A stretch of DNA of 59,079 bases from an uncultured Candidatus Saccharibacteria bacterium (lineage in GTDB: Bacteria; Patescibacteriota; UBA1384; JAGGWG01; CAZAJM01): positions 1-59,079 of the forward strand of contig CAZAJM010000005.1 in the NCBI GenBank assembly GCA_964485625.1, read 5' to 3'. The translations under genes were made by a program, and so were the position numbers. Under the pieces are notes generated by a model that saw only the letters and a list, made by a program, of their open reading frames with translations, was not told where the DNA came from and did not search any database. This document shows positions 51,955 to 55,339 of the stretch, piece by piece; position 1 is the first letter of the stretch, and every line of letters begins with the position of its first letter.

Positions 51955-52191
51955 ATGTCAGCACCCTGTCCTAATTGCGGATCTCCAGTTAAAACAACAG
52001 AAAAAGGAAACTGTAGCAATCAAGGCTGTGGTTGTCTTCTAGTTACTTTATCTATTTTTGTTTCACTATTTCTCTTCCCGATCGGTCCGATAATAGGAGT
52101 TGTATTTTTTGGAATGGGTCTTTGGATTATCTTAACATCAAAAAAAGAAACTACACCAAGTTGCACAAACTGTAACTGGGAAGGAAAATAG
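51955..52191 (+). CDS. LITAF-like split zinc ribbon with membrane hairpin
   Basis: CPNC - hydrophobic hairpin - CTNC; SD GGGAGG. Confidence 0.65.
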   Translation: MSAPCPNCGSPVKTTEKGNCSNQGCGCLLVTLSIFVSLFLFPIGPIIGVVFFGMGLWIILTSKKETTPSCTNCNWEGK

Positions 52192-52246: not shown

Positions 52247-52329
52247 TTGACAACAGAATTAAAAATACTATATTTAAGCTAGAATTTATCTTAGCGAATC
52301 GCACCTATCCTAGACAAGAATAGGAGGTG
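52247..52329 (+). promoter_or_regulatory. promoter and SD-sequestering leader of the HxH peptide gene
   Basis: TTGACA (52247-52252), 16 bp, TATATT (52269-52274); CACC-TA-TCCT (52302-52311) complementary to SD AGGAGGTG (52322-52329). Confidence 0.6.
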
Positions 52330-52335
52330 AATCCG

Positions 52336-52548
52336 ATGGGTCTTTTTGGTGGTAAGAGTGGTAGCAACCACTACCACAGAGGTGGCAAAGGCACGCACTC
52401 TCACGGCAACAAGCAGGGAGGCGACCACAAGCACACCTCGAGCAACCCCCGTGGCACCCACGGCCACCGCAGTGGCCAGACTCCTTCCGGTGGACACATC
52501 CATCGAGGTGGAAACACCGGAGGCACGCACTCTCACAAGACTCGCTGA
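52336..52548 (+). CDS. 70-aa Gly/His-rich peptide with six HxH motifs
   Basis: ATG 6 nt after AGGAGGTG; HYH, HSH, HKH, HGH, HIH, HSH; 16-nt internal repeat at 52389-52404 and 52521-52536. Confidence 0.75.
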   Translation: MGLFGGKSGSNHYHRGGKGTHSHGNKQGGDHKHTSSNPRGTHGHRSGQTPSGGHIHRGGNTGGTHSHKTR

Positions 52549-52567
52549 CCTCCTCCGGGATCCACAA

Positions 52568-52607
52568 GTGGGGCGTATCGAACCAGAAACAAAAACATAC
52601 GCCCCAC
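52568..52607 (+). other. GC-rich 11-bp hairpin without U-tract
   Basis: GTGGGGCGTAT/ATACGCCCCAC, 18-nt loop. Confidence 0.75.
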
Positions 52608-52631
52608 CCCATCCTCTTCTTAAATTAAACT

Positions 52632-53906
52632 ATGAATTATTTAATAAAAAAACTAGGCAATGGACTTAAATTACTAGTAATAAGCGATAAGAGTATAGAT
52701 GATATTAATATCTCCCTTACTATTAAAGCTGGTTCATTTAATGAAGAAAAATCTAATAATGGCGTAGCTCATTTAATAGAACATCTAATTCTGCCTAGCA
52801 CGGAGACTGACCATGGTTCCAATTTAAAAGAGATTACAGAACTAAAAGCAGAACTAGATCTATCAATTGATAAAGAATATGCTTACTTTAATGGTGTTTT
52901 TGGCAATAAAAGCCTGGAAAAAACTCTTATATATTTAAAAGATATGGTTTTCAAGCCAAAATTTAGAGATGAGACGATAGAGAGAGAAAAGAATATAGTA
53001 TATCAAGAGATTGAAAGATCTGAAGATGATGTAATATACCAAATAGAAGAACTTGCTGATTCGAATATCTTTAAAGAGAAACACGGCTTTAAATTACCAT
53101 TACTGGGTAGCAGGGAAAGTATAGAAAAAATAACCACGGGACAGGTAAAAAAATACCATCAAAAACACTATATCCCCAGCAACACTACCTTAGCTATTGC
53201 AAGCAGTTACACTAGAACCAAAGCCTTTAATATAGTTAAAGAAATATTTAGTAGCCTAAAAAAACAGGAGCTAGCTAAAACAAAAAGCCAGGAAACAACG
53301 AAGCAAAGTATTACTACTAAAGACTACAATCGAAATAACCGAGTCTATTTAAAATTAGACTTTAACTCTTTTGATATTAATACACCACTAAAAAATAAAA
53401 TAATACTAGGGTTGTTGAGTGAATATTTAACTGAATTCCAAAACTCACCCCTAATCCAAAAATTAAGAGTAGAGAACAATCTAATCTATGATATCTATAC
53501 CCAAACCCAATACTACGATCAAGTAGGAATCTTTAGCATAATTACCGACGTAAACAAAAAAGATACAGTAAAGGTAATCAAAACCATACTTAAAGAGCTA
53601 GATAAGTTAAAGATAGAAACAAATATTAACAAAGACTTACTAACCCAAGCCAGGCAATATTTAAACCGAGAAAACTTAAAAGCAGAGAATGATCTAGAAA
53701 CGAAAACAAACTGGCTACAGGAAGAAGTAATGGCCTATGGTAAACTTAAAAACTCACCCAAAAAAGTAATCAATATTAGAGAAAAAATAACAAGAAATGA
53801 TATTTCAAAAACAGCCAAACAAATATTCAACACTAAATATCTCCACATCTCAGCCTTGGGGCCAACTAGCAGGAAAGAAATAGAAAAAGCCTTAGAAAAA
53901 ACTTAA
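52632..53906 (+). CDS. M16 (pitrilysin-family) zinc peptidase
   Basis: inverted zinc motif HLIEH, downstream EKNIVYQE, LRVENNLIYDI in the C-terminal half. Confidence 0.88.
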   Translation: MNYLIKKLGNGLKLLVISDKSIDDINISLTIKAGSFNEEKSNNGVAHLIEHLILPSTETDHGSNLKEITELKAELDLSIDKEYAYFNGVFGNKSLEKTLIYLKDMVFKPKFRDETIEREKNIVYQEIERSEDDVIYQIEELADSNIFKEKHGFKLPLLGSRESIEKITTGQVKKYHQKHYIPSNTTLAIASSYTRTKAFNIVKEIFSSLKKQELAKTKSQETTKQSITTKDYNRNNRVYLKLDFNSFDINTPLKNKIILGLLSEYLTEFQNSPLIQKLRVENNLIYDIYTQTQYYDQVGIFSIITDVNKKDTVKVIKTILKELDKLKIETNINKDLLTQARQYLNRENLKAENDLETKTNWLQEEVMAYGKLKNSPKKVINIREKITRNDISKTAKQIFNTKYLHISALGPTSRKEIEKALEKT

Positions 53907-53960: not shown

Positions 53961-54025
53961 TTGACAAACACCACTATAACTAGTATAGTGGAAGCAGAAC
54001 TCAACTACTCCTGTGAGGGGTAGTT
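53961..54025 (+). promoter_or_regulatory. consensus sigma70 promoter and 5'UTR hairpin
   Basis: TTGACA (53961-53966), 17 bp, TATAGT (53984-53989); stem 54003-54012/54016-54025. Confidence 0.7.
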
Positions 54026-54070
54026 ACGACGTACCGTACTCGAACAACAGTCGCAAGAGAGGTGAGAAAA

Positions 54071-55339
54071 ATGCAGAAGGCAGTTGTTGACACAGGACAA
54101 GACCGAAGTAAGATAGCTGAAAAGTTCGCAGCCATCATTGCAGTAATCATTGCCGCTGGCAAGATGGACCTCACAAAGACCTGGCTGGGCAAAATCCTCA
54201 AGGGTATTGCCTACACCGTTCTTGGCATCTTCGTCCTGGCGGCTGTTTTCGCAATCGTTTTCCTTGCCGTACCCCTTCTCTGGGGCTGGAGCGGACACTT
54301 TACGCTCCTATTTGACCAATCCTGGTCAATGGCTAACCCTGTCGAACAGGGTGCCATCATGCCTCTCTCAATCTACTACACTACCCCAACTGAAATCTAC
54401 CAAGAGGGTGACGTAGTAGTCTTTGACGATGAGGCGGGCCAGAACGGAAAAGACGGATCAGTCAAGCAGATTGTCGAAGTTCAGCAGTCTGACTATCTGG
54501 TCCAAGGTCTCAACGAAAAAAATACCGATGGCCCCTTCCCGGTCCCCAAGGACCTAGTTGAGGGTAAGGTGATCGCTGGCCGCCGAAGTCTGCTCCCAGT
54601 AAGCTTCTGGGACTGGTTGTCGATGGGCTTTACGCTCAATGACAACCATATCAAAGAACGTTTCTGGGACATCTTTTCACTGAGGACAGTTCTGGCTTCA
54701 CTAACCAACCCCTTTAGGAACCATGTCGTTCTTACATACCCGCCTCAAAATGTTCACAGGCTAGCGGGCAAGTATGTAATCGAACAGCCTGCCCAAGAGC
54801 TGGTGGAGATCTACTCAACCAATGGCCAACTACTCTATCACTTTGAGGGATCACTGCACAGCACAGATCAGAAGAGTGCAGTTATCCTCTCAAGATGGGA
54901 GAATGAGTGGACGGCCAACTACACCAAATATGATCTCACGACAAATGAAATCATTGAAGGTGTAGGCTCAGATGGCAACCCCCTGCCTGAGAACGCCAGC
55001 AACAAGAAAGTCACGCTGGCAGATGGCACCACAATCTCAGGCAACCTCACCGAGGTGGTAAAAGGTGGCAGCTGGATAGTTTCAGCCGCTACCGAACACG
55101 TCCAGACCTCTACCATCAACCCCGGCGGAGATAGTGTAAGCTCAATAACAATTTCCGGCGGCGGAGAAGCAGACGTCATAACTGAGATCAAGGTGGGTGA
55201 TGAAAATGTGGAGACGTTATATGGTAGCTCGTGGACACACCGCATTGATCACCCTCGTGAACTAGTCACTATAACCCTCAGTCGTAACGCACAACACCAT
55301 CACTCAGAAGGAGGAATTAATGAGATCATCGTCGACTGA
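54071..55339 (+). CDS. S26 signal peptidase I-like domain fused to a long extracellular region
   Basis: start moved to ATG 54071 (SD GAGGTG); TM, then QSWSMANP, EGDVVVF, SVKQIV, YLVQGLN, VEGKV. Confidence 0.6.
   Translation: MQKAVVDTGQDRSKIAEKFAAIIAVIIAAGKMDLTKTWLGKILKGIAYTVLGIFVLAAVFAIVFLAVPLLWGWSGHFTLLFDQSWSMANPVEQGAIMPLSIYYTTPTEIYQEGDVVVFDDEAGQNGKDGSVKQIVEVQQSDYLVQGLNEKNTDGPFPVPKDLVEGKVIAGRRSLLPVSFWDWLSMGFTLNDNHIKERFWDIFSLRTVLASLTNPFRNHVVLTYPPQNVHRLAGKYVIEQPAQELVEIYSTNGQLLYHFEGSLHSTDQKSAVILSRWENEWTANYTKYDLTTNEIIEGVGSDGNPLPENASNKKVTLADGTTISGNLTEVVKGGSWIVSAATEHVQTSTINPGGDSVSSITISGGGEADVITEIKVGDENVETLYGSSWTHRIDHPRELVTITLSRNAQHHHSEGGINEIIVD

Follow-up and report, generated by a model that had tools for sequence, protein, structure and literature searches.

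A conserved HxH mini-protein of a Candidatus Saccharibacteria bacterium and its relatives in the head-gene modules of uncultured phages

In fibre repeats of the PF03335 type, trimers with a beta-structure hold metal in octahedral sites, each built from three HxH motifs. Hpn and the Hpn-like proteins of Helicobacter are fast-evolving nickel stores that carry poly-His runs together with Cys or Gln tracts, and PqqF is an M16 peptidase that acts on a small peptide. According to one paper, which cites the crystal structure, seven iron ions at the tip of the T4 long tail fibre protein gp37 are held by the paired histidines of HxH motifs (PMC11705849). The M16B enzymes PttP1/PttP2 process the precursors of lanthipeptides, which are RiPPs (ribosomally synthesised and post-translationally modified peptides; PMC8960859, PMC10885120). 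The RiPP-processing M16B enzymes described there are heteromeric pairs, and the natural substrates of bacterial M16B peptidases are mostly unknown (PMC8960859). The present study concerns two adjacent genes in a 59,079-nt stretch of DNA, hereafter the window, which is positions 1 to 59,079 of contig CAZAJM010000005.1 from the genome of an uncultured, ultra-small Candidatus Saccharibacteria bacterium (GCA_964485625.1; 724 kb in 31 contigs, 39.5% guanine plus cytosine (GC), 95.7% complete). One of the two encodes a 70-residue peptide, MGLFGGKSGSNHYHRGGKGTHSHGNKQGGDHKHTSSNPRGTHGHRSGQTPSGGHIHRGGNTGGTHSHKTR, with six HxH motifs; the other, immediately downstream, encodes an M16 peptidase. Sequence comparisons indicate that the peptide is the product of a real gene, that it is new and highly conserved, and that this HxH mini-protein has its kin in an undescribed family of phage proteins. 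The best overall explanation, to which we assign a probability of about 0.5, is that this conserved mini-protein is a metal-dependent folding unit and possibly a substrate or partner of the M16 enzyme.

The original prediction, made from the letters of the window, had described a 70-residue peptide with 12 His, 19 Gly and no Cys, all the histidines falling in six HxH motifs, and translation of the open reading frame (ORF) confirms every count. The motifs start at residues 12, 21, 31, 42, 54 and 65; no histidine lies outside them, and no run of histidines is longer than one residue. Five of the six have a glycine at position -2 (GTHSH, GDHKH, GTHGH, GGHIH and GTHSH). The chain consists of three GxHxH-turn-GxHxH units (residues 10-23, 29-44 and 52-67) and little else, the first HxH being preceded by 10 residues only. 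The product has a mass of 7.3 kDa, is strongly basic (pI about 11.9) and contains no evident signal peptide or membrane segment.

The ORF is protein-coding and under strong purifying selection. This follows from the pattern of codon substitutions relative to the only close relative found, which lies on L005, a 5.3-kb metagenome contig of the Joint Genome Institute (JGI). The L005 homologue, 69 residues long, is located directly upstream of an M16 homologue (P0002) and has the same promoter, the same spacing of the Shine-Dalgarno sequence (SD) and the same downstream hairpin. The two peptides are 87% identical, almost uniformly along the chain, and all 12 histidines are retained. Nucleotide substitutions at codon positions 1, 2 and 3 number 4, 8 and 34, respectively, the third position accounting for 34 of 46. 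In the frame of the peptide these amount to 34 synonymous and 9 non-synonymous codon changes, against 2 and 40, and 2 and 36, in the other frames. Such a pattern argues that the ORF is translated and specifies a protein rather than a pure RNA. By the Nei-Gojobori method the synonymous sites are saturated (pS 0.70), and dN is 0.076 for the peptide and 0.29 for the M16 gene. Protein identity between the two genomes is 87% for the peptide, 59% for M16 and 37% for a surface protein farther downstream, and an S26-like neighbour gave no detectable alignment between the window and L005. On these comparisons the peptide is the most constrained gene of its block. The HxH pattern is far beyond what chance would produce, and the whole ORF has been kept in a second, deeply diverged genome.

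Peptides of this type have escaped protein databases for a simple reason. When a small gene is GC-rich and its genome AT-rich, every frame stays open and the wrong one gets annotated: in L005 the gene caller took the +1 frame (81 residues, L005:1776-2021) across the real HxH ORF (L005:1712-1921). A word-based protein search with the peptide gave no candidates, an exact-sequence look-up returned nothing, and a search of metagenome and viral contigs with the alignment of the two peptides gave no confirmed relatives. The peptide had been proposed to be of a new kind, and this view stands, for it matches nothing in the annotated libraries searched and its codon-substitution pattern is that of a real gene. 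Six-frame searches of genomes from the candidate phyla radiation (CPR) covered three overlapping sets (61 relatives, 162 members of the class and 401 genomes sampled from the phylum), with no other genome of the source family or genus among them, and the peptide was absent from all three. Only two genomes are known to carry it, the source genome and that of L005. The peptide-M16 pairing recurs in L005, and the peptide occurs in none of the other CPR genomes searched.

More distant relatives are found in phages. Searched with phmmer against 1.84 billion representative proteins, the window peptide gave a single match (P0058, E = 2.5e-4), a 112-residue protein with HxH repeats such as GEHRHTEQNPFGLHKH. 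A motif common to the two sequences, H-x-H-T-x-x-N-P-x-G-x-H-x-H, was scanned in back-translated form and yielded 34 metagenome loci and seven IMG/VR viral contigs; about 21 of the 34 loci encode true members of the family. The shared pattern is G-x-HxH-[TD]xxNPxG-x-HxH, after which come a linker of nine residues (xxG-x4-G-x), a repeat of the unit and a third, looser one. Family proteins usually contain six HxH motifs, as does the window peptide, the extra unit being N-terminal in the latter and C-terminal in the phage proteins. Residues 28-70 of the window peptide align with the phage proteins without gaps over about 43 residues at 36-44% identity, and the columns that are invariant across 22 sequences (in the window numbering) are G29, H31, H33, G40, H42, H44, G52, H54, H56, N60, G63, H65 and H67. 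A profile built from phage sequences only placed the window ORF first among 9706 ORFs of the genome (E = 9e-8; the runner-up had 0.62). The real alignment score was reached by none of 20,000 composition shuffles and by 6 of 20,000 shuffles in which the His positions were held fixed.

The phage members are 103-160 residues long and acidic (pI 5-6.5), possess an N-terminal helical region and lack Cys, except for one member with a single Cys. Their genes lie in the head module, on contigs of up to about 177 kb (102-177 kb), in this order: TerL and portal, then one or two genes for small basic proteins, then the HxH gene, a gene for an unknown protein of 450-605 residues and the gene for the major head protein. 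Further members include P0058-P0073 and a 124-residue protein of L014; the 15 found in databases are all unnamed or "hypothetical". Neither the peptide nor the phage members matched Pfam (E up to 1), PHROGs, NCBIfam or PADLOC, and tblastn of the peptide and of one phage member against 50,697 phage records gave no match, possibly as a result of low-complexity masking. At one locus, L025, the HxH region lies inside a 712-residue protein whose C-terminal part is an XkdF/S78 prohead protease, a single case of fusion. The product of the phage gene downstream of the HxH gene (549-605 residues) was considered as a protease related to the L025 fusion and rejected, since the two showed no significant similarity and neither Pfam nor PDB gave a match; any pairing of HxH protein and protease in phages therefore comes down to that one fusion. 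The window peptide shares with the phage proteins the double-unit spacing, the same His, Gly and Asn positions, the six motifs and the lack of annotation. Unlike them it is a short, basic repeat core encoded on a CPR chromosome among cellular neighbours, with neither the N-terminal helix nor a position between portal and capsid genes. Judged by these characters, it would be classed as a minimal cellular member, or a close derivative, of the undescribed phage HxH family and not as a typical member, and its phage ancestry is likely.

The second gene of the pair had been described as an intact HXXEH-type M16 peptidase starting 83 nt downstream with no evident promoter or SD of its own, and this account proved accurate, the spacer in addition holding a hairpin. 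The protein scores 75 and 93 bits with PF00675 and PF05193, above the cut-offs, and has the sequence characters of M16 subfamily B. It falls far below the cut-offs of all the named NCBIfam equivalogs (YfmH, 78 bits against 250; PqqF, 34 against 320). In L005 the HLIEH and REKKIVSQEI motifs are retained, and in both genomes HxxEH, the Glu-rich segment and the R/Y pair all reside on one M16 gene; the enzyme could thus act as a homodimer. M16 genes are present in 29 of 31 related genomes, nearly always in single copy, and the source genome has two. Against the M16 genes of 28 relatives with one copy each, the window enzyme scores 79-135 bits and the paralogue at C7:22707-23942 reaches 145-264 bits at the same loci, which identifies the latter as the class-wide orthologue and the former as an extra copy. 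Its sole close homologue is P0002 of L005, and a scan of genome contigs with the window M16 found only an unrelated Bacteroidota match. By these scores, the window M16 is a lineage-specific, divergent and AT-rich paralogue, known only from the source genome and L005 and in both of them directly after the peptide gene. Synteny between the two breaks immediately upstream of the peptide (GreA in L005, a Cys-rich membrane protein and an S41 protease/CtpA in the window) and not between peptide and M16. Genes downstream of M16 are also syntenic; the neighbours of the block in the window are the S41 protease, the Cys-rich membrane protein, the S26-like protein and the surface protein. A link between peptide and M16 is plausible.

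What could such a peptide do? By analogy with gp37, its function is probably metal-dependent, the paired histidines acting as ligands. The gp37 tip (PDB 2XGF; Phage_fiber, PF03335) resembles it in having GxHxH every 6-12 residues of a chain rich in Gly, Ser and Thr, and differs in being part of a 1026-residue trimeric fibre, whereas the window protein is free, cellular and 70 residues long. Within the tip sequence itself the GxHxH motifs stand 6-11 residues apart. The conserved NPxG turn and the 9-residue linker with its G-x4-G core are specific to the new family. Hpn is likewise small and very rich in His, which makes a role in metal buffering plausible; in contrast to Hpn, the window peptide has regularly spaced HxH motifs only, contains no Cys and is highly conserved, and it cannot be classed with the Hpn proteins. 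A metal-templated repeat fold, one of the two options that the original prediction had offered, fits the GxHxH signature and the exact spacing shared with the phage family, as well as the precedent of the gp37 iron ligands. AlphaFold2 (AF2) modelling of monomers without ions did not arrive at a confident fold, whether the input was the peptide or a phage member (predicted local distance difference test, pLDDT, 45 and 52, respectively). These low values fit folding that depends on a cofactor or on oligomerization, and fit a disordered chain equally well.

One could envision the following scheme. Transcription would start at the peptide's own strong promoter and read through past the intergenic hairpin into the accessory M16 gene. 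The product, basic and apparently abundant, would be disordered alone and would fold only upon binding a divalent metal (Fe2+, Zn2+ or Ni2+) clamped by the paired histidines. Each unit, made of G-x-HxH, a turn (NPxG or GGxG) and a second G-x-HxH, would form a beta-hairpin presenting four imidazoles on one face. Two geometries can be imagined. In one, each hairpin unit would bind about one ion, hence about three per chain, through 3-4 imidazoles. In the other, which is gp37-like, an ion would be shared by three HxH motifs, drawn either from as many chains or from the three units of a single chain; a single-chain bundle would then hold two ions and a trimer six. M16 "cage" peptidases enclose and cut unfolded peptides of roughly this size, so that the metal-free, unfolded peptide is the most economical candidate and may be the most plausible substrate of the neighbouring enzyme, for either turnover or processing. 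A bolder version of this scheme, which we regard as unlikely, is that the CPR bacterium domesticated the core of a phage head protein as a "metal-zipper" with a dedicated M16: the apo form would be degraded, and the metal-stapled form (a three-hairpin bundle or a trimeric needle) would resist the protease, the pair serving as a post-translational metal buffer or sensor. In many large uncultured phages, the same HxH module would then provide a so far unrecognised, metal-dependent step of head assembly.

Several observations weigh against a metal-dependent fold unit of phage type linked to M16. The profile evidence for the phage relationship is partly circular, the retrieval motif having been derived from the window peptide and P0058. 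Within the phage proteins this motif sits in the second unit, which aligns with the third unit of the window peptide, itself without the motif; the first phage unit, which was not selected for, aligns with the motif-bearing unit of the peptide, and the phmmer match to P0058 is independent of the scan. The peptide is strongly basic, the phage proteins being acidic, and it has the repeat core but not their N-terminal helical part, so its partners may differ. No PDB chain was matched in a profile search with the family. PF03335 has no match in the whole genome (E up to 10) or by the family profile, and an hhalign comparison of the family with the gp37 tip was not significant (probability 2.7%). 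The likeness to gp37 is accordingly one of motif, and the peptide may work like the fibre tip without being a relative of it. Its near-uniform conservation at 87% exceeds the needs of a simple metal sponge, and the unusually high GC content at third codon positions (GC3), kept despite saturated synonymous divergence, is not accounted for. Finally, a linkage between peptide and M16 that is known from two genomes could be inherited synteny.

This last point leads to the alternative that we find the least improbable, although still doubtful, namely that peptide and M16 are functionally unrelated and the peptide is a stand-alone small protein whose neighbour was inherited along with it. The pairing is known from two genomes only, the genes downstream are syntenic too, so that the whole block may have been inherited, the two genes differ strongly in composition in both genomes (GC3 0.63 against 0.28), and a stable hairpin separates them. 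Yet both are lineage-specific additions that are found together, the M16 gene has no detectable promoter, and synteny breaks just upstream of the peptide and not within the pair. The original prediction had itself allowed that the adjacency might be due to chance; this caveat is weakened by the status of the M16 as an extra, lineage-specific paralogue. It had also proposed that the peptide is a RiPP-like multi-core precursor, cut by M16 into short HxH units that serve as metallophores or signals. The layout, with a small gene endowed with a strong promoter and SD, then a hairpin and a peptidase, is the usual one for a precursor and its processing enzyme. PqqF and PttP1/PttP2 act on such peptides; the window M16 resembles them in its pair of M16 domains, its HxxEH motif and its R/Y residues, and this accessory copy co-occurs with a small-peptide gene. 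However, the flanks, over several kb in each direction, contain no modifying enzyme, no exporter and no immunity gene, and the peptide has no signal- or leader-like region. Repeats do exist, but conservation is uniform, with no evident split between leader and core, and no recurring motif other than G-x-HxH is seen around the units. The relatives are structural-looking phage head-module proteins of 103-160 residues, and the described M16B enzymes are heteromeric (PMC8960859), whereas here HxxEH and the R/Y pair are carried by one gene. We do not adopt this part of the prediction and consider a RiPP-like role quite improbable.

The presence of a NiFe-type hydrogenase in the window, together with HypC (about 22.8-23.0 kb) bearing the His tail CHHHHDHTHEHAHSH, brings to mind a role in nickel supply, which the original prediction had raised, and more specifically a dedicated nickel store or chaperone that would replace HypA and HypB. 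Known nickel binders include Hpn as well as the His-rich stretches found in HypB and SlyD. The nearly complete genome has no HypA (best score 17 bits, cut-off 28.9) and no HypB-type GTPase, the matches to the cobW model being EF-Tu and other GTPases. The missing HypA and HypB leave a gap that such a protein could fill, but nothing ties the peptide to the hydrogenase: it lies about 30 kb from the hydrogenase genes, outside their operon, is absent from the other CPR genomes searched, and has its relatives among phage head-module proteins, which are not connected with nickel enzymes. A nickel-specific role therefore seems unlikely to us. More doubtful still is the idea of a phage-derived mimic, whereby the domesticated HxH core would use shared metal sites to co-assemble with the HxH protein that an infecting phage encodes, acting as a defensive poison of head assembly or serving a resident element. 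The phage head-module proteins are indeed the only relatives, a viral contig with a family member (IMGVR_UViG_3300033148_001059) comes from the same metagenome as L005, and the peptide is a lineage-restricted repeat core of atypical composition. Against this, PADLOC gave no matches, mobile-element or prophage genes are absent from the vicinity, purifying selection as strong as this, kept up across a deep split at which dS is saturated, is unusual for genes in an arms race, and the M16 would be left without a role. We give hardly any credence to the possibility that the GC-rich island is a structured non-coding or dual-function RNA. The gene is one of 9 GC-rich islands in the genome (at least 0.58 GC), its plus-strand fold is predicted to be unusually stable (z = -5.7), GC3 stays high although the synonymous sites are saturated, and RNAalifold reports 6 compensatory pairs. 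On the other hand, the third-position bias and the 34 synonymous against 9 non-synonymous changes prove selection on the protein, Rfam has no match in the ORF, and covariation drawn from two sequences has little power.

Whatever its precise role, the peptide, which gene callers miss, is a well-supported addition to the few conserved small proteins on record for CPR bacteria, and its study has brought to light an unannotated family of HxH-repeat proteins in the head-gene modules of uncultured phages. The connection between this family and a cellular gene suggests that HxH clamps, tied so far to tail fibres, may be a general and portable building block. With 70 residues, the peptide is short enough for direct synthesis, metal titration and NMR, and its accessory M16 neighbour offers a concrete candidate-substrate case for a bacterial M16B peptidase.

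Features of the peptide-M16 locus (window positions) and loci of the phage HxH family (contig positions)
Feature	Position	Strand	Evidence
70-residue HxH mini-protein, coding sequence (stop included)	52336-52548	+	ORF translation is MGLFGGKSGSNHYHRGGKGTHSHGNKQGGDHKHTSSNPRGTHGHRSGQTPSGGHIHRGGNTGGTHSHKTR; codon-substitution pattern; phage HxH homology
Sigma-70-type promoter of the peptide gene, TTGACA-16 nt-TATATT	52247-52274	+	11 of 12 consensus matches; identical TTGACA-16-TATATT upstream of the L005 homologue
Shine-Dalgarno sequence AGGAGGTG	52322-52329	+	perfect; ends 6 nt before the ATG; identical in L005
5' untranslated region (5'UTR) hairpin able to sequester the SD	52301-52329	+	minimum free energy fold: CACC..UCCUA pairs with UAGGAGGUG, covering the whole SD
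16-nt in-frame direct repeat AGGCACGCACTCTCAC, copy 1	52389-52404	+	encodes GTHSH
16-nt in-frame direct repeat AGGCACGCACTCTCAC, copy 2	52521-52536	+	132 nt from copy 1
Intergenic hairpin in the 83-nt peptide/M16 spacer	52568-52578 / 52597-52607	+	11-bp stem, 18-nt loop, no U-tract; stem present in L005 with one mismatch
Accessory M16B-type zinc peptidase, 424 residues	52632-53906	+	PF00675 and PF05193; HLIEH; REKNIVYQEIE; R/Y pair in LRVENNLIY
Phage HxH family locus	L014:2785-3159	-	
Phage HxH family locus	L028:8038-8514	+	
Phage HxH family locus	L048:1229-1624	+	
Phage HxH family locus	L016:1713-2198	+	
Phage HxH family locus, fusion	L025:1551-3689	-	
Phage HxH family locus	L062:8001-8360	+	

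The promoter, the perfect SD and the 16-nt duplication announced in the original prediction are all real, the duplication being in frame. No repetition at the DNA level is seen in the L005 homologue. SD motifs precede only about 19% of the long ORFs of this genome by a crude count; a perfect SD is thus an unusual feature of the peptide gene, and its absence ahead of M16 means little. Nothing resembling a promoter was detected in the spacer ahead of M16. The 5'UTR hairpin, which is kept in L005 only in its CACC/GGUG part together with a GAATCGCACC block, may be an element of translational control. The intergenic hairpin is probably an attenuator or a stabiliser of the mRNA 3' end.

The contrast in composition between the GC-rich gene and its AT-rich surroundings, noted early on, is equally clear: GC is 0.60 in the peptide gene, 0.31 in M16 and 0.395 in the genome. 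GC3 is about 0.63-0.64 in the peptide gene and 0.54 in its L005 homologue, against 0.28 in M16, 0.32 in the EF-Tu gene and 0.38 for the genome mean, and 18 of the 20 two-fold pyrimidine-ending codons of the peptide gene are of the NNC type. Codon usage typical of highly expressed genes was rejected as the cause, for EF-Tu and rplI do not share it. Recent horizontal transfer is unlikely, given that the same mosaic is present in L005 despite saturated synonymous divergence. A pure non-coding RNA was also dismissed: Rfam (gathering threshold, and E up to 10) and ARAGORN returned nothing, the Rfam 15 covariance models had no match within the peptide ORF, and the codon-position pattern excludes it. 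The high GC3 may reflect selection on the choice of codons in an ORF so dense in His, or selection acting on the structure of the mRNA. Four other ORFs of the genome (C10:2454-3362, C1:88034-88867, C4:11738-12202 and C7:30611-31261) have a GC3 of 0.66-0.79 and a strong preference for NNC codons; they could be foreign genes or contamination (C10 has 46% GC).

Two further genes close to the pair deserve mention. Directly upstream of the peptide promoter, positions 51955-52191 encode a 78-residue protein in which CxxC...CxxC pairs flank a hydrophobic segment, with a weak match to the TIGR04104 zinc finger; it is not found at the corresponding position in L005. Beyond M16, the gene at 53961-55339 has a GC3 of 0.56 and its own TTGACA-17-TATAGT promoter, and specifies a membrane protein with a large extra domain and a weak match to signal peptidase I (TIGR02228, E = 0.004). 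Its counterpart by position in L005 is a protein of 264 residues that is not alignable with it and carries a GHSMEPT motif.

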